In this document: positions 41,863 to 46,327 of the stretch, piece by piece
Layout of the letters: every line of letters begins with the position of its first letter
How positions within the stretch are numbered: the first letter of the stretch is position 1
NCBI GenBank assembly: GCA_026388665.1
Contig: JAPLJJ010000052.1
Coordinates: 1,780 to 65,779 of the forward strand
Source of the DNA: Deltaproteobacteria bacterium
Lineage (GTDB): Bacteria > Desulfobacterota > Desulfomonilia > Desulfomonilales > Desulfomonilaceae
Direction: 5' to 3'
DNA length: 64,000 bases
Position numbers and translations under genes: made by a program
The notes under the pieces: generated by a model
Seen by the model: the letters and a program-made list of their open reading frames with translations, nothing else
Databases searched by the model: none
What the model was told of the DNA's origin: nothing

Positions 41863-43311
41863 TTGAACGAGAATTTGATATCCAGAATGAAACCAGCGCC
41901 TGTTCTCGTCGCTGGGGATGTAATGGTTGATGAATACGTAATAGGTGACGTTGAAAGAATTTCCCCTGAATCGCCAGTACCCGTCTTATTGGCAAAGGAT
42001 CGACACAGGCGTCTTGGAGGGGCGGGAAACGTCGTCAGAAATGTCGTTTCCATGGGAGGCGCCGTAGCCTTGTTCGCTACGATCGGCGGAGACGCGGCTG
42101 GAGAATGGTTCAAACGGCACTGCTCTGAAATTGGAGTGGATACTTTCTGGTTAAGATCTGAGAGATCGAGACCTACAACAATAAAGACTAGAGTTGTAGC
42201 TCGAAACCAGCAGATAGTTCGGATTGATGAGGAGTACGTTGGCGATATACCCTTTGACCTCGAAAAAAAAGTTCTAGATGACATAAGGTCAGTGACTCCT
42301 CAAGTGAAGGCCGTAATAGTATCCGACTATGGTAAGGGGTTCCTATCAAACACTATTTTGAATGGGTTATTTGCGACAGCCCGATCAGAAGGAGTCCCTT
42401 CTCTTGTAGATCCTAAAGGTATGGATTTTAGTCGATATCGTGGCGCGACTTATATAACTCCGAATGTACGTGAAGCTTCTCTGGCTTCCGGTATAGAAAT
42501 AAAGAACAAGGAAACACTTGAAAAAGCTGGCCGAATTTTGCTCGAACAAACGCAAGCTGAAGGAATAATTGTAACTCGCGGAAAAGACGGAATTACTCTG
42601 GTAACCAGAACCAAAATTCAGGATTTCCTGGTAAAACCTGTTGAAATTGTTGATGTTACTGGAGCTGGAGATACGGTGATCGCTACCCTTGCTCTCGCAG
42701 TGGCGAGTGGGCTTTCTATCGAAGAAGCCGCGCAAATGGCAAACCTGGCGGCTTCACTGGTTGTCGCGCGCTTCGGGGCGGCCTCTGTAACCCTTGACGA
42801 AATGCTAAACTCTCTCAAGAATTGGCCGCAGGGTCGAAAGGTTATCACTCGGGACGAGCTAGGTAGGGTTATCAGAAATCATAGACTGCAGGGCCAATTC
42901 ATAGTTTTCACTAACGGCTGTTTTGATCTGTTCCATGTGGGACATCTTGAACTTCTCCGCAAGGCATCCGCTTTGGGAGACATTTTAATTGTAGCTGTCA
43001 ACTCTGATGAATCAGTTCAAAAAATAAAAGGCTCAGGAAGACCGATTGTGGATGAAAAAGATAGGCTGGAACTAGTTTCAGCCTTAAATTGTGTAGATTA
43101 TGTTGTGTCTTTTGATGAAGACACTCCTTATAACCTTATAAAAGAAATTAAACCGGATATCCTGGTAAAAGGAGAAGATTGGAAAGGGAAAAAAGTTGTC
43201 GGGGAAGACATTGTAAACGAGCGGGGGGGTAAAGTTCAATTTGTACAGCTTGTGGGCGATGTTTCGACAAGTTCTCTTATTAATAAAGTCCTTTCCAATA
43301 GGAAAAATTAG
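41863..43311 (+). CDS. hldE: bifunctional D-beta-D-heptose 7-phosphate kinase / D-beta-D-heptose 1-phosphate adenylyltransferase
   Basis: N-terminal PfkB-type kinase (VLVAGDVMVDEY, DVTGAGDTV). C-terminal cytidylyltransferase (VFTNGCFDLFHVGHLELL). TTG start 6 nt after GGAGG. Confidence 0.9.
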   Translation: MNENLISRMKPAPVLVAGDVMVDEYVIGDVERISPESPVPVLLAKDRHRRLGGAGNVVRNVVSMGGAVALFATIGGDAAGEWFKRHCSEIGVDTFWLRSERSRPTTIKTRVVARNQQIVRIDEEYVGDIPFDLEKKVLDDIRSVTPQVKAVIVSDYGKGFLSNTILNGLFATARSEGVPSLVDPKGMDFSRYRGATYITPNVREASLASGIEIKNKETLEKAGRILLEQTQAEGIIVTRGKDGITLVTRTKIQDFLVKPVEIVDVTGAGDTVIATLALAVASGLSIEEAAQMANLAASLVVARFGAASVTLDEMLNSLKNWPQGRKVITRDELGRVIRNHRLQGQFIVFTNGCFDLFHVGHLELLRKASALGDILIVAVNSDESVQKIKGSGRPIVDEKDRLELVSALNCVDYVVSFDEDTPYNLIKEIKPDILVKGEDWKGKKVVGEDIVNERGGKVQFVQLVGDVSTSSLINKVLSNRKN

Positions 43312-43350: not shown

Positions 43351-45594
43351 TTATCTTCTATCCCGGCGCGGTCTCACATTTCTTCTTTCTCTTTGATTAT
43401 CCGGTTCCGGCGGTCTGTTTGGGCGCGGAGGACGCTTGATGTCTTCGAGCGCTACACCGAGTGGTCCGCCGGACACGACTGTTGTAGTTATTTCATTATT
43501 GTTCATAATACTTAATGTTACTTGAGGAGTCCTCGTGTATTCCTCAACCAATTTCTTGAGGCTTGTCACTCTCAGTCCTGTCTCACCGGCGTATTCAACC
43601 AATACATCACCGGGGATTATTCCAACACGGTCCGCAATACTTCCCTTTTGAACTTCGACCACTTTTACACCGGGAGATGTTTCTAATTCTTGTAAACGAG
43701 CAAGAATTATTCGCGCATTAATGGTGTCTCCCATTTTTCGGAATTCCGACAAGGCTTGAGTGTAAAGCTCCTTACTCTTAAAGGTCCGGTTTCTTTCCGC
43801 GTATATTCCGGCAAGGGTCGCTTTCACGCGGGCTACCCATTTTGGATCTTCCCGCTGTTCGTAAAGCTTCAACGCTTTTTCAAGGTCCTCAATTGCGTTG
43901 TCCCACTGCTGTTGCTGCGCGGCGAACATGGCCTGACGGAAAAGCCTGATCCCATCTTCCTCGCTAGGCGGCAGCGTGGAGTTCGATGTGGATTCATAGG
44001 ATGAGCCACCATCAGAAGAACTTTTCCTAGCGGTTTTCGTGTCCAAGTCCTCCGCATCATCTTCCATTACCACGCGAAAACCAAGGTTCCAGAAACTCAT
44101 TGTGTCGCCTGAAAAACCTCTGAAAGCGCATCTGCAGTCGGCTGGGCTAGCGAACCAATTTCCACCCTTGTTAACTCGCGATGTTCCCGTTGGGGGCCCC
44201 TTTGGATCCTCAATAGCCGAGGTTTCAAAGTAATTTCGATCATAATAATCCTGTACCCACTCCATGACGTTGCCCTCAATATCATAGAGCCCAAAACTAT
44301 TGGGAGGATAGCTGCCTACAGGAGCTACATATTCATATCCATCATTGACGGTGGTCAGACTGTCGGGCAATTTTGAGTTACCATCCCCGAAATTTGTGTC
44401 TTTGTCTCCAGGGAGTTTATTCCCCCATGGATATCGTGCCCAGACAGCGCCTCCGCGACACGCCATTTCCCACTCAGCTTCCGTCGGTAACCTATAATTT
44501 CGTTTTTCCTTACGACTCAACCATTTGCAGAAAGCCTGAGCGTCGTTCCACGAAACAAAAACCACTGGTTGATCATCAGCCAACTTCCAGGGGACCAAAT
44601 CCCACTTCATGTTCTTCTGTGGTACCCATCGTTCTTCTTTGTTGCTAAATATCATCCCCCCGTCGCCCTTTTCCGCGTCAGTTTTATATTTGGTCTCGTT
44701 TATAAAATCCCTGAACTGGCGGATGGTTACCTCATACGCGCCCAGATAGAACGGTCGAGTTATACGAACAGGATGCAACGGTGTCTCATCCTGAAACCAT
44801 TGTTTATGGCCTTCTCTCCATGTCCTGCGGAAGGTAAGCCTCAGCCAGTCCAACTCTTGTTTAGGACTCCCCATCATGTATTCCATGGCCGGTATCCTCA
44901 CCAATTTCATGCTGACTGAATTGGTATGTGTAATTTGCTTCTTTGGGGATTCGAACAATACATTTAGGCCCTGCAAAGATCTCAGCCAGTCAGCACAGTC
45001 ACGGCTCTCTCCCTGTCCTCCCTGACAGTCCTTCAACGTCTGCCGGAGTATTTCAGCAGCCCTTACAGAATCCCCGGAAAGGACAAGTTCTCCTGCCTTT
45101 CTAATTTTTTCAGAAGGAGACTCGGATGTATGGGTGTTGTTGCCCGTGTTGGAATTCTTAGATGTATCAGAAGTGTTCTGGGCGAACAGGGTGTTGTAGG
45201 GTTGGTGTTGATTGGAGGCTGAACCGGAACCCGGTCCTATCAGATAGGTTGGTGGTGTGGTTTTCATAGCCAAAATATTTGCTTGTTTTTTTTCTGTGCC
45301 AACGTGAGAGCTTTGACTCGCGTGGCACGTCAAATTTCGGGAAGGTAGAGACATTAGCGCGGCCACTAGAGCAACGACAATCGGAGCAATAACGATCCGT
45401 TCGAGTTTAGTTTGGTTGATGGGACCTTGATTAGCGGAAAAAAGCTTCTCGCTGATCCCCTTATGATCATGAACAATAATGTTATTTCTTTTGGCGAGAT
45501 GATATGTTTTAGCGATACTTGAAGTAATATATCGTGAATAGTAAACGTTAACTAGTATCATTATGCCATTGAAATTAATTTTTAAAATATTCAT
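43351..45594 (-). CDS. membrane-anchored FGE-sulfatase (SUMF1) domain protein with TPR-like region and C-terminal PDZ domain
   Basis: One TM segment (IVIAPIVVALVAALMSL). SUMF1 blocks are MKLVRIPAMEYMMGSP, PLHPVRITRPFYLGAYEVT, VSWNDAQAFCKWLS, YRLPTEAEWEMACRGG, FGLYDIEGNVMEWVQD and RVNKGGNWF...CRCAFRG. The helical repeat region is WDNAIEDLEKALKLYE... and the PDZ-like region is GVKVVEVQKGSIADRVGIIPGDVLVEYAG. The tail is Arg/Pro-rich. The start codon is uncertain. Confidence 0.8.
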   Translation of the reverse strand: MNILKINFNGIMILVNVYYSRYITSSIAKTYHLAKRNNIIVHDHKGISEKLFSANQGPINQTKLERIVIAPIVVALVAALMSLPSRNLTCHASQSSHVGTEKKQANILAMKTTPPTYLIGPGSGSASNQHQPYNTLFAQNTSDTSKNSNTGNNTHTSESPSEKIRKAGELVLSGDSVRAAEILRQTLKDCQGGQGESRDCADWLRSLQGLNVLFESPKKQITHTNSVSMKLVRIPAMEYMMGSPKQELDWLRLTFRRTWREGHKQWFQDETPLHPVRITRPFYLGAYEVTIRQFRDFINETKYKTDAEKGDGGMIFSNKEERWVPQKNMKWDLVPWKLADDQPVVFVSWNDAQAFCKWLSRKEKRNYRLPTEAEWEMACRGGAVWARYPWGNKLPGDKDTNFGDGNSKLPDSLTTVNDGYEYVAPVGSYPPNSFGLYDIEGNVMEWVQDYYDRNYFETSAIEDPKGPPTGTSRVNKGGNWFASPADCRCAFRGFSGDTMSFWNLGFRVVMEDDAEDLDTKTARKSSSDGGSSYESTSNSTLPPSEEDGIRLFRQAMFAAQQQQWDNAIEDLEKALKLYEQREDPKWVARVKATLAGIYAERNRTFKSKELYTQALSEFRKMGDTINARIILARLQELETSPGVKVVEVQKGSIADRVGIIPGDVLVEYAGETGLRVTSLKKLVEEYTRTPQVTLSIMNNNEITTTVVSGGPLGVALEDIKRPPRPNRPPEPDNQRERRNVRPRRDRR

Positions 45595-45843
45595 ATCAAA
45601 AATTCCTTGACAAAAAATACAATCAAGGGAATTGTAGCAGAGAAAAGGGGTGAGTCAAGTGTGGACTTTAGAGATGGGACTCATGCTTTATCGGTATCAG
45701 GTGATAACTTAGAAAAAGATTGACAACACCCAGTAAACATGGTACCGATTAACAAACGTTTTTTGGTTTTTCTATAGGGAGCAACTGTTTTCGGTTAGAG
45801 AACAGCGAATTTATTCTCGTTTAATGAGGAGGTAACGATTTCA

Positions 45844-46236
45844 ATGAGAAGATTTGCAGTGACGCTCGCGGTTGTAGGTATGGTTATGTTGTTCGCTTCA
45901 TACGGCTTTGGATTCTATGCGTGGGCTCCATATTCTTCATGGGGCAACGCGTCATCCAGCAGTAGCAGCGGAAACTATACAGCCAGTTCATCAAGTAGTG
46001 GCTATTATTGGCCGGCAAGCTCCTCAAGCAGCAGTGGAACAGTAGCTTATTGCTGTGTTCCTGCTTCCAGCAGCAGCAGCGGCTCATATTGGCCTGCTTC
46101 TTCAAGCAGCAGTGGAACAGTAGCTTATTGCTGTGTTCCTGCTTCCAGCAGCAGCAGTGGCAATTATTATTGGCCGGCAAGCTCCTCAAGCAGCGGTTAC
46201 TATCCTGCGAGCAGCTCTTCAAGTGGCTGGTTCTAA
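45844..46236 (+). CDS. small signal-peptide-bearing Ser-rich repeat protein (8 x (P)ASSSSSG with aromatic/Cys-Cys linkers)
   Basis: GAGGAGG lies 11 nt upstream of the ATG. The N-terminus MRRFAVTLAVVGMVMLFASYGFGFYAWA is hydrophobic. The gene has its own downstream hairpin + T-tract. The repeat architecture is preserved only in this frame; the other two overlapping ORFs translate the same CAG/AGC-rich repeats into low-complexity junk. Confidence 0.65.
   Translation: MRRFAVTLAVVGMVMLFASYGFGFYAWAPYSSWGNASSSSSSGNYTASSSSSGYYWPASSSSSSGTVAYCCVPASSSSSGSYWPASSSSSGTVAYCCVPASSSSSGNYYWPASSSSSGYYPASSSSSGWF
46004..46194 (+). repeat. intragenic perfect direct repeats (56 nt x2 with a 78-nt period; 29 nt x2)
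   Basis: 46024-46079 is identical to 46102-46157, and the next base differs only synonymously (AGC/AGT). 46004-46032 is identical to 46166-46194. Checked base by base in the given sequence. Confidence 0.9.
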
Positions 46237-46290
46237 GATCAATTTGTGAAACGGCATTATCCTAGCTTTTTAACTTAGAAAGCTTAGTGG

Positions 46291-46327
46291 AAAAAGGCGA
46301 TCTTTCATGTGAGGATCGCTTTTTTTG
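46291..46327 (+). terminator. rho-independent terminator after the repeat-protein gene
   Basis: AAAAAGGCGATC-(11-nt loop)-GATCGCTTTTTTTG. The stem is extended by A/T pairing and followed by a T-tract. Confidence 0.5.

Follow-up and report, generated by a model that had tools for sequence, protein, structure and literature searches.

A serine-run repeat mini-protein of Desulfomonilales and its conserved gene neighbourhood

What could be encoded by an open reading frame that consists, beyond its N-terminus, almost entirely of short serine runs? Such a frame lies in the window, the 64,000-nucleotide stretch of DNA analysed here. A preliminary description had read it as a 130-aa protein of eight Ser-run units, with the separators NYT / YYW / TVAYCCV / SYW / TVAYCCV / NYYW / YY and the protein end GWF, and our translation is identical (Table 1). 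The family was not recognised at that stage, and no model in Pfam or NCBIfam matches the mini-protein either. It is an exported low-complexity repeat protein that belongs to no described family.

Table 1. Features of the mini-gene locus, in coordinates of the window
Feature	Coordinates	Strand	Remarks
Divergent partner gene, periplasmic FGE-fold + TPR + PDZ protein	43351..45594	-	PF03781 at 5e-58, TPR_12, PDZ_6
-35-like box TTGACA, 5' of mini-gene	45720..45725	+	Conserved, alignment of 48 upstream regions
5'-UTR hairpin, CTGTTTTCG / loop / AGAACAG	45785..45805	+	Conserved
Shine-Dalgarno GAGGAGG	45826..45832	+	11 nt 5' of ATG
Ser-rich repeat mini-protein CDS, stop codon included	45844..46236	+	ATG start, 130 aa, ORF and translation
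Export signal or membrane anchor at N-terminus, residues 1-28, MRRFAVTLAVVGMVMLFASYGFGFYAWA, then invariant Pro29	45844..45927	+	
Disordered, almost uncharged tail, eight [aromatic/Cys linker]-(P)A-S5/6-G units	45928..46233	+	
30-nt exact repeat, copy 1 (YYWPASSSSS)	46003..46032	+	
56-nt exact repeat, copy 1 (SSSSG-TVAYCCVPA-SSSS unit)	46024..46079	+	
56-nt exact repeat, copy 2	46102..46157	+	78-nt, 26-codon period
30-nt exact repeat, copy 2	46165..46194	+	
Conserved aromatic C-terminus G-W-F-COOH (...GYYPASSSSSGWF-COOH)	46225..46233	+	Candidate PDZ ligand
Intrinsic-terminator-like hairpin with T-run, 3' of mini-gene	46290..46326	+	
Downstream partner gene, lipocalin-fold lipoprotein, 157 aa	46351..46824	+	

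A protein-coding gene built from internal repeats

Homologues of the mini-gene were found in 59 species-level genomes of Desulfomonilales, the order to which the gene is restricted (Desulfomonile-type sulfate reducers); the preliminary description had guessed Desulfobacterota, correctly. Its reading frame is intact in 51 of the 54 distinct homologous sequences, with conserved ends despite many indels. A codon-aware comparison places selection on this frame, in which 0.58 of differing codons are synonymous versus 0.09 and 0.125 in the other two. Of 378 Ser runs, 373 combine AGY with TCN codons, which argues for selection on Ser at the protein level. Indels are all multiples of 3, and so are the repeat periods, save in two frameshifted assemblies. 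These sequence comparisons identify the mini-gene as a real gene on which purifying selection acts.

At the mini-gene every sense frame, and one antisense frame, is open over part of its length, and certain database entries translate homologues in Gln- or Ala-rich frames. Both observations would suit a non-coding, microsatellite-like AGC/CAG tract with a spurious ORF, but the frame-specific synonymous excess, the mixed Ser codon families, the periods in multiples of 3 and the conserved start, Shine-Dalgarno and C-terminus reduce the probability of that reading to almost nothing. A non-coding RNA is likewise ruled out by the codon evidence, and an Rfam search returned a single sub-threshold chance match.

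The Shine-Dalgarno and the gene's own terminator, both part of the preliminary description, were located. AGGAGGT of the Shine-Dalgarno is unchanged across 34 species in the upstream alignment, and of the 7 pairs predicted for the 5'-UTR hairpin 4 show compensatory changes (RNAalifold, alignment of 34 species). About 28 of the 44 orthologous loci have a hairpin with a T-run after the gene, with stems that differ in sequence. The strong Shine-Dalgarno, the conserved 5'-UTR hairpin and the dedicated terminator suggest that the mini-gene may be strongly expressed. The TTGACA box is a putative promoter element of the mini-gene that a simple sigma-70 scan did not call.

The internal DNA repeats were found much as first reported: the 56-nt repeat and its period are exact, and the second repeat is present, with two further independent detections, at a length of 30 nt and not 29. 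Exact repeats this long with mixed codons far exceed chance. The same repeat architecture is seen in dozens of genomes, and across genomes the two 56-nt copies show concerted evolution, in agreement with the recent intragenic duplication or conversion proposed from the single sequence. The repeat DNA changes by unequal recombination or gene conversion, recent and ongoing, and these processes homogenise the units inside each genome and alter their number. The expected variation in unit number is evident between species, whose homologues have 6-9 units and 98-142 aa. In a metagenome scan, 104-aa and 131-aa forms were recovered with flanks 99.8-100% identical, and unit number apparently differs between near-identical populations too, although collapse of repeats in short-read assembly could mimic this.

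All five same-species contigs end inside the mini-gene repeat, and short-read contigs of close relatives start exactly within copy 2 of the 56-nt repeat. Internal exact repeats break short-read assemblies and frameshift gene calls, and for this reason the mini-protein family is badly under-represented in protein databases. It has 22 database homologues (22 clusters among 1.84 billion representatives), all labelled hypothetical, versus more than 1,400 clusters for its neighbour. Distant members of the family are Gly/Tyr-rich.

N-terminus, repeat tail and C-terminus of the protein

The signal-like N-terminus and non-globular body described earlier reappear in the AF2 model, where residues 2-22 form a helix and the remainder, residues 23-130, has a pLDDT of 31-49. 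Kyte-Doolittle analysis places a hydrophobic segment at residues 3-26, directly followed by W-A-P, and A18, W27, A28 and P29 are invariant in homologues. Residues 2-3 are KR (24 sequences), RR (19) or KK (2); Tat export was rejected for want of a conserved twin-arginine. The N-terminus is predicted to be a Sec-type hydrophobic segment, serving either as a cleaved signal or as an uncleaved anchor. Proline at +1 blocks signal peptidase I, and the invariant Pro that follows A-W-A in the homologues argues against cleavage at that site. Other candidate sites lie between LFA and S and between G and F.

The extracytoplasmic tail of about 100 residues is, according to the model, intrinsically disordered and non-globular. 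Family composition is dominated by Ser (42.8%), followed by Gly (13%), Tyr (11.5%), Ala (10.4%), Pro (5.6%), Trp (4.9%) and Cys (3.3%), with charged residues below 1%. Tyr and Trp together make up about 16% of the tail, and carboxylates and His are absent from the mini-protein. Lys and Arg do not occur in the tail. The unit grammar is very regular: each of the 343 Ser runs counted in the homologues is followed by Gly, 311 of them are preceded by Ala and none contains Thr. Internal units read YWPASSSSSG and YCCVPASSSSSG.

The core role first given to the vicinal Cys does not hold across the family. Proteins carry from 0 to 10 Cys; the residue is missing altogether from 7 of 47 orthologues and from most of the paralogues. 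Where Cys occurs it is nearly always within C-[VMAT]-P-A-S. The C-terminus is SSSGW[FY] in 43 of the 46 distinct sequences that have a PDZ-encoding neighbour, and the paralogues, which lie in another genomic context, end in YY, YYY or YYYR.

A conserved three-gene module

A gene for an FGE/TPR/PDZ protein is adjacent to the mini-gene and divergent from it in 53 of 63 loci (median -257 bp), and a lipocalin-fold gene lies directly 3' of it in 50 of 63 (median +106 bp). Loci without this adjacency are contig ends, seven paralogue loci in that other context and six without a detected gene of about 158 aa. The arrangement is kept where genes farther upstream differ, and the mini-gene, the FGE/TPR/PDZ gene and the lipocalin lipoprotein gene form a conserved three-gene extracytoplasmic module. 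This module was not part of the preliminary description, nor were the conservation of the aromatic C-terminus and the invariant W-A-P. Other conserved neighbours include aconitase, an MBL-fold protein, thiolase, HldE and ThiDN.

In the window, the true start of the FGE/TPR/PDZ gene is probably 3' of the longest ORF start. Its product is predicted to be extracytoplasmic: of 48 orthologues, 44 have one hydrophobic segment, at the N-terminus. Conservation of the FGE, TPR and PDZ domains is 67-81%. The match to PF03781 reaches 5.2e-58, and PDB structures of human FGE were matched at about 3e-40 over residues 270-510 (phmmer). The PDZ domain is closest to those of the HtrA/DegS type, and a domain search of the partner found no trypsin-like protease domain. 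When distant homologues of the FGE/TPR/PDZ protein were sought outside the order, the 120 matches listed were solely close orthologues, at identities of at least 59%.

The lipocalin-fold lipoprotein has a lipobox-like Cys and a GTW motif. Weak PF13648 matches were obtained for 6 of 7 proteins tested, one of them above threshold. Its AF2 model has a pLDDT of 76, and the best Foldseek matches are bacterial lipocalin-family proteins (E about 2e-4).

Possible roles and comparison with known systems

We tentatively favour a role for the mini-protein as an abundant envelope scaffold or brush, neither enzyme nor globular binder, whose units and C-terminus dock onto the peptide-binding domains of the partner. 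The evenly spaced aromatics would be its 'stickers', with the Ser5-Gly runs for 'spacers'. The x-P-A-S units and the aromatic C-terminus would dock on the PDZ, TPR and FGE-fold groove of the FGE/TPR/PDZ protein, and the mini-protein would tether or organise this partner in the periplasm. A link to the PDZ domain is suggested because the GW[FY] end tracks the PDZ neighbour and differs in paralogues from the other context, and because HtrA/DegS-type PDZs, the nearest to the partner's, read aromatic C-termini. Examples are WVF of MucE, read by AlgW, and YxF of OMPs, read by DegS, with aromatics at positions 0 and -2 (PMC8545111). Docking is weakened by the placement of the mini-protein aromatics at 0 and -1, with Gly at -2, unlike the DegS/AlgW pattern, and by the existence of paralogues that work without an FGE/TPR/PDZ neighbour. 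The scaffold reading as a whole is weakened because gene adjacency inside one bacterial order may simply be vertical inheritance; aconitase, too, is adjacent in 42 of 63 loci.

If the scaffold reading is true, the mini-protein would be a rare bacterial case of a disordered sticker-and-spacer protein that is uncharged, extracytoplasmic and stands alone, with a grammar under very tight selection. It would open a way to study how the envelope is organised in Desulfomonilales, environmentally widespread and poorly studied anaerobes, and a non-enzymatic role for one of the many FGE-fold proteins without catalytic cysteines.

The strictness of A-S5-G exceeds what a passive spacer needs and hints at some modification or recognition event. 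Dense modification of the Ser5 runs, by O-glycosylation, phosphorylation or similar, is possible if rather unlikely, and would make the mini-protein a modified matrix or protective coat protein with A-S5-G as the acceptor motif. The very strict grammar with its Thr-free runs, the protein-level selection on Ser and the predicted extracytoplasmic location all point this way, as does the precedent of O-glycosylated streptococcal Ser/Thr-rich regions (PMC12041528), and such modification is compatible with the scaffold explanation. However, no glycosyltransferase or kinase is conserved beside the gene, the closest GT2 being 6.6 kb away and present in 10 of 63 flanks. Heptosylation of Ser, hinted at by the upstream HldE (ADP-heptose synthesis), was rejected as a candidate: HldE is probably housekeeping and is missing from the P0008 context.

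A more doubtful reading is a periplasmic protein associated with metal(loid)s, sulfide or minerals, in which Cys-Cys, Tyr and Ser hydroxyls would bind or shield, for instance to counter the precipitation of metal sulfides. Vicinal Cys occurs in many members, and paralogue loci contain CpxP/Spy-like Metal_resist genes, ArsR regulators, ArsP_1 permeases, thioredoxins/DsbD, MamS_MamX-like genes and RND efflux genes. Nevertheless, Cys is dispensable in orthologues and paralogues alike, the protein offers neither carboxylates nor His, and the window's own mini-gene locus has no metal genes.

There is also a small chance that the mini-protein represents a new class of envelope component specific to Desulfomonilales. 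It could be a periplasmic sticker-and-spacer polymer, tethered to the membrane, that forms a cohesive layer, gel- or condensate-like, or A-S5-G could be the acceptor of an undescribed serine modification that the non-canonical partner installs or reads. The cultured member of the order has an unusual envelope 'collar'.

It is improbable that the mini-protein is a small MucE-like signalling ligand for envelope stress, its aromatic C-terminus being shown to a PDZ sensor. That C-terminus is conserved, the neighbour's PDZ is HtrA-like, paralogues occur beside ECF sigma/anti-sigma as well as the Metal_resist genes, and AlgW is activated by WVF of MucE via its PDZ (PMC8545111). Yet the PDZ partner is without a protease domain, position -2 is Gly and not aromatic, and a C-terminal signal has no need of a strict 100-residue repeat tail.

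The neighbouring FGE-family protein might turn the Cys of C-x-P-A-S into formylglycine, the change known from the sulfatase motif C-x-P-x-R. The near-constant setting of the Cys and the full-length FGE fold of the neighbour, with its match to human FGE, would fit, but the partner is without the catalytic cysteines, and we therefore reject the conversion as very unlikely. In the window it reads F-A-SPAD-C, versus M-C-HRSY-C in human FGE. The position of human C336 is always Ala or Ser in the orthologues scored, and that of C341 is Cys, Gly, Ala or Asp, with no correlation to the number of Cys in the mini-protein. The motif contains no Arg, and the 7 Cys-less orthologues retain the FGE neighbour. 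The dependence of FGE on O2 and copper also counts against formylglycine, since those Desulfomonile that have been cultured are anaerobes. A 'substrate-trap' mixed disulfide, formed via the Cys equivalent to C341, was weakened as a candidate, since this residue is Gly, Ala or Asp in 13 of 49 scored orthologues.

The multi-core RiPP precursor suggested earlier, with repeats excised and modified, has a core-like repeated architecture with Cys and Ser and a highly conserved N-terminus in its favour, but is highly improbable: that N-terminus is a basic-then-hydrophobic Sec-type signal or anchor and not a cytoplasmic leader, no lanthipeptide, YcaO, peptide-modifying radical-SAM or peptidase/transporter gene is conserved nearby as a maturase, and the sole nearby radical-SAM gene, about 4 kb off, is MoaA.

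Several known systems share features with the mini-protein. In PrsA, PBP1a and other streptococcal membrane proteins, extracytoplasmic Ser/Thr-rich disordered regions are O-glycosylated, which shields them from proteolysis (PMC12041528). The mini-protein is, by prediction, likewise membrane-associated, extracytoplasmic, Ser-rich and disordered, and by analogy O-glycosylation could plausibly protect or functionalise it. Unlike the streptococcal regions, which are appendages of folded proteins, it stands alone, and its runs are Ser-only and constant in length, with Ala and Gly at their borders and aromatic/Cys linkers between them. Its host is a Gram-negative member of Desulfobacterota with no linked GtrB/GT-C pair.

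MucE of Pseudomonas is also small, with an export signal, a conserved aromatic C-terminus and a PDZ protein encoded alongside, like the mini-protein, a candidate PDZ ligand. Whereas MucE and OMPs end in W-V-F and Y-x-F, the mini-protein ends in G-W-F/Y. Its PDZ partner, unlike AlgW and DegS, combines an FGE fold and TPR with no protease domain, and MucE has nothing that corresponds to the long repeat tail of the mini-protein. With the FGE/sulfatase system it shares a neighbouring FGE fold and, in C-x-P-A-S, the Cys, the Pro and a small residue at +3. It differs from that pair in that the neighbour has no catalytic Cys pair, the motif has no Arg and the Cys is dispensable.

SgpA/B/C of purple sulfur bacteria are small exported repetitive low-complexity structural proteins, and secreted glycoside hydrolases have polyserine linkers, that is, Ser runs outside the cytoplasm. 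Polyserine linkers are also mentioned in PMC2386152. The mini-protein resembles Sgp in being small, exported, repetitive and of low complexity, with Gly/Tyr-rich distant members. It comes from a different lineage and is Ser-dominated, with no flanking catalytic or binding domains. Our literature search found nothing on Ser-rich proteins of Desulfomonile, nor on sulfur globule protein composition. In contrast to the very large SRRP adhesins of Gram-positive bacteria, the mini-protein has 130 aa, no LPXTG and no SecA2/Y2 glycosylation locus.

FUS-type [G/S]Y[G/S] domains and FG-nucleoporins are sticker-and-spacer low-complexity domains. The mini-protein is similar to these in its uncharged Ser/Gly-rich composition, regularly spaced aromatics and predicted disorder. 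It differs in being bacterial, extracytoplasmic and only about 100 residues in its repeat region, with a far stricter repeat grammar.

Coding status and expression signals

The Ser-rich mini-protein is encoded by an open reading frame whose reported translation was recovered exactly (see table). It begins MRRFAVTLAVVGMVMLFASYGFGFYAWA, continues with eight (P/N/T)A-S5/6-G units separated by the linkers NYT, YYW, TVAYCCV, SYW, TVAYCCV, NYYW and YY, and ends in GWF. A protein search returned 22 relatives, every one unnamed or annotated as hypothetical, with a common N-terminus (MKRFAVTLAVVGMVMLFA..GFYAWAPY.SWGG) and C-terminus (GYWPASSSSSGW[YF]). Only 22 clusters were recovered when 1.84 billion representative proteins were searched with a profile; the most divergent of these retain the N-terminal module and an aromatic end, and their tails are of a more general Gly/Ser/Tyr type. 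Neither Pfam nor NCBIfam holds a model for the family, which the preliminary description had also failed to recognize, and literature searches found nothing on it. The family is undescribed and narrowly distributed. Scanning one genome per species yielded 59 mini-gene loci, essentially all in Desulfomonile, Desulfomonilaceae or Desulfomonilales MAGs.

Features in and around the mini-gene (window positions)
Feature	Position	Strand	Basis or remark
Ser-rich mini-protein CDS	45844-46236	+	translated ORF
56-nt exact repeat	46024-46079 = 46102-46157	+	78-nt period
30-nt exact repeat	46003-46032 = 46165-46194	+	sequence comparison
Shine-Dalgarno GAGGAGG	11 nt 5' of mini-gene ATG	+	sequence
Terminator-like hairpin with T-run	46290-46326	+	3' of mini-gene
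5'-UTR hairpin	45785-45805	+	conserved; ~40 nt 5' of mini-gene ATG
-35-like TTGACA box	45720-45725	+	conserved, 5' of mini-gene
Inverted pair CTTGAC ... GTCAAG	45605-45658		conserved
FGE-fold/TPR/PDZ gene	43351-45594	-	domain matches
Bifunctional HldE-type gene	41863-43311	+	PfkB kinase and cytidylyltransferase-like domain; ADP-heptose synthesis
Overlapping ORFs, 45-112 aa	45884-46222; 46008-46265; 45908-46045	-; +; +	AGC/CAG-rich repeat

The alternative that the locus is a microsatellite or a spurious ORF is refuted by several lines of evidence. Of 54 distinct sequences (98-142 aa), 51 keep the frame unbroken between their conserved start and end, and internal repeat periods are all multiples of three, bar two obviously frameshifted assemblies. 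Codon alignment between species, a check proposed in the preliminary description, gave a synonymous share of 58% of differing codons in this frame vs. 9% and 12.5% in the two shifted frames. AGY and TCN codons are mixed in 373 of 378 Ser runs across the family; because these codon families cannot be interconverted by a single synonymous step, selection acts on serine in the protein itself. Expression signals are conserved as well. The Shine-Dalgarno core AGGAGGT does not vary among 34 species, and the predicted terminator has a counterpart, with differing stem sequence, in about 28 of 44 orthologous loci. The overlapping ORFs are by-products of the repeat, and the shifted sense frames, at only 9-12% synonymous changes, show no selection.

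Rfam searches returned nothing for structured RNA at the mini-gene and no match to the 5'-UTR hairpin. This hairpin, with compensatory changes in four of seven pairs (34 species), may be an mRNA-stabilizing or regulatory stem-loop. The inverted pair lies in the divergent intergenic region between the mini-gene and the FGE-like gene, and its right arm overlaps a minus-strand promoter match for the latter (TTGACT-16-TACAAT). Together with the TTGACA box, it may represent divergent promoters or a shared operator.

Repeat dynamics and assembly

Both internal DNA repeats reported earlier are present and exact; the longer is as described, and the shorter measures 30 nt rather than 29. The two Cys units of any one genome are the same down to their synonymous sites, and they differ between genomes: ...TGCTGTGTTCCT (V,V) in the window, ...TGCTGCACCCCA (T,T) in a second locus (L013) and A,A in a third (L016). 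This pattern indicates concerted evolution via gene conversion or unequal recombination, in agreement with the proposed intragenic duplication or conversion. Unit number, which was suggested to vary between strains, varies between species (six to nine units). In metagenome populations with flanks 99.8-100% identical, mini-proteins of 131-132 aa or of 104 aa occur, the latter shorter by precisely one 81-nt unit, and an extra AGC codon is present in one variant; these forms fit strain-level variation, and short-read collapse of the repeat would give the same picture.

Assemblies break systematically at the mini-gene, which is hence under-represented in protein databases: five independent short-read contigs (L072-L076), derived from the same or a close species, all begin exactly within the 56-nt repeat, at about window position 46118. 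Such breaks help explain why the mini-protein forms 22 database clusters vs. more than 1,400 for its FGE-like neighbor. Some entries (P0015, P0017, P0018, P0019, P0022) and loci (L024, L060) shift partway into Gln-rich or Ala/Arg-rich frames, sometimes back. Most likely the AGC-rich tract was frameshifted during sequencing or assembly, which the effect of the repeat on assemblers may explain; real slippage is conceivable.

Protein properties and gene neighborhood

A strict repeat grammar characterizes the mini-protein, which is disordered, uncharged and either exported or anchored. The signal-peptide-like N-terminus noted earlier corresponds to a single hydrophobic segment (residues 3-26), and AlphaFold2 with the family alignment models a helix at 2-22 and no confident structure over 23-130 (pLDDT 31-49), as expected of a non-globular protein. 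Positions 2-3 are KR in 24 species, RR in 19 and KK in two; as a twin-Arg is not conserved, export is predicted to be Sec-type rather than Tat. A18, W27, A28 and P29 are unvarying, so Pro always directly follows the candidate A-W-A cleavage site. Signal peptidase I is blocked by Pro at +1, and the segment may thus be an uncleaved anchor or be cut at another site.

Across the family, the mature region is 42.8% Ser, 13% Gly, 11.5% Tyr, 10.4% Ala, 5.6% Pro, 4.9% Trp and 3.3% Cys, with <1% charged residues. We counted 343 Ser runs in 45 species: every run is followed by Gly, 91% are preceded by Ala and 64% by Pro-Ala, 64% are exactly five residues long and 19% six, and none contains Thr. Cys occurs almost without exception as C-[VMAT]-P-A-S. 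Its number ranges from 0 to 10, with none in seven of 47 orthologues; the function therefore does not center on Cys, contrary to the weight first given to the vicinal pairs.

The mini-gene belongs to a conserved extracytoplasmic three-gene module. Clustering of neighboring ORFs over 63 loci revealed a divergent, adjacent gene for a 690-750-aa FGE-sulfatase/TPR/PDZ protein in 53 (median -257 bp) and a gene for a ~158-aa protein directly downstream in 50 (median +106 bp). Exceptions are contig ends and seven paralogue loci; the ~158-aa gene additionally went undetected in six loci. The adjacency is kept even where genes farther upstream vary; aconitase is likewise adjacent in 42 of 63 loci, so vertical inheritance contributes to the synteny. 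The ~158-aa protein is predicted to be a lipoprotein with a lipocalin fold, given a lipobox-like Cys, a GTW motif, weak but recurrent PF13648 matches, an eight-stranded AF2 model (pLDDT 76) and best Foldseek matches to bacterial lipocalin-family proteins. In 33 of 63 loci the FGE-like gene is flanked by an HldE-type gene, probably a housekeeping LPS gene, although ADP-heptose also serves as donor when serines of some autotransporters are heptosylated.

The FGE-like protein has a single hydrophobic segment at its N-terminus in 44 of 48 orthologues, which indicates that it is extracytoplasmic. Conservation is 80% in the FGE, 81% in the TPR and 67% in the PDZ domain, and 20% in the N-terminal linker. 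The first 225 residues are poorly conserved and orthologues have ~695-705 aa; translation probably begins 3' of the longest-ORF start. The protein aligns with human FGE at ~3e-40, and M-C336-HRSY-C341 of the human enzyme corresponds to F-A-SPAD-C. Orthologues carry only Ala or Ser at the first catalytic position, and the residue at the second (Cys, Gly, Ala or Asp) shows no correlation with mini-protein Cys content. We therefore rejected the possibility that an FGE acts on C-x-P-A-S of the mini-protein (cf. sulfatase C-x-P-x-R). With the catalytic pair absent, the database names "formylglycine-generating enzyme" and "SUMF1/EgtB/PvdO family nonheme iron enzyme" are probably misleading.

Possible roles and comparison with known systems

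We tentatively propose, at somewhat less than even confidence, that the mini-protein is abundant and forms an envelope scaffold or brush. Aromatic residues would act as stickers and Ser5-Gly runs as spacers between them, and the stickers and aromatic C-terminus could dock onto the peptide-binding PDZ, TPR and FGE-fold domains of the partner. Dense modification of the serines, a rival reading for which there is precedent (PMC12041528), is compatible with a scaffold. The exclusion of Thr and the unvarying Gly after each run are not explained by a passive spacer, and mainly for this reason a modification or recognition hypothesis is kept. On the other hand, no conserved glycosyltransferase, kinase, radical-SAM peptide maturase or other RiPP enzyme was found near the mini-gene, which also disfavors the earlier idea of a RiPP-like precursor.

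A further rival, a metal- or sulfide-related role, is suggested by the gene context of a second paralogue group (P0007, P0014, P0016, P0021, L071), a recurrent locus also listed at L007, L008/L059, L009 and L010. Here a CpxP/Spy-like Metal_resist gene is divergently adjacent, with two ArsR regulators, ArsP_1 permeases, thioredoxin/DsbD, ankyrin proteins, a MamS_MamX-like protein, ECF sigma/anti-sigma genes and RND efflux genes nearby. Most of these paralogues have no Cys, and their C-termini are YY, YYY or YYYR in place of GW[FY]. At least two genomes carry one copy per context (L016 with L059; L062 with L071).

Of the mini-protein sequences with a PDZ neighbor, 43 of 46 end in SSSGW[FY]. The neighbor's PDZ resembles those of HtrA/DegS type, which read aromatic C-termini such as WVF of MucE and YxF of OMPs (PMC8545111). 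A MucE-like stress signal is nevertheless disfavored, because aromatics occupy positions 0 and -2 in those ligands vs. 0 and -1 in the mini-protein, and the partner, unlike HtrA/DegS, has no protease domain. As a putative PDZ ligand, the mini-protein would resemble MucE-type ligands in function, without membership among them. Its partner is one of many non-catalytic FGE-fold proteins; among the database matches of the partner, PvdO and PorK/GldK are comparable. The family falls within a known general kind, exported low-complexity repeat proteins, and has an unusually strict grammar and a conserved gene module.
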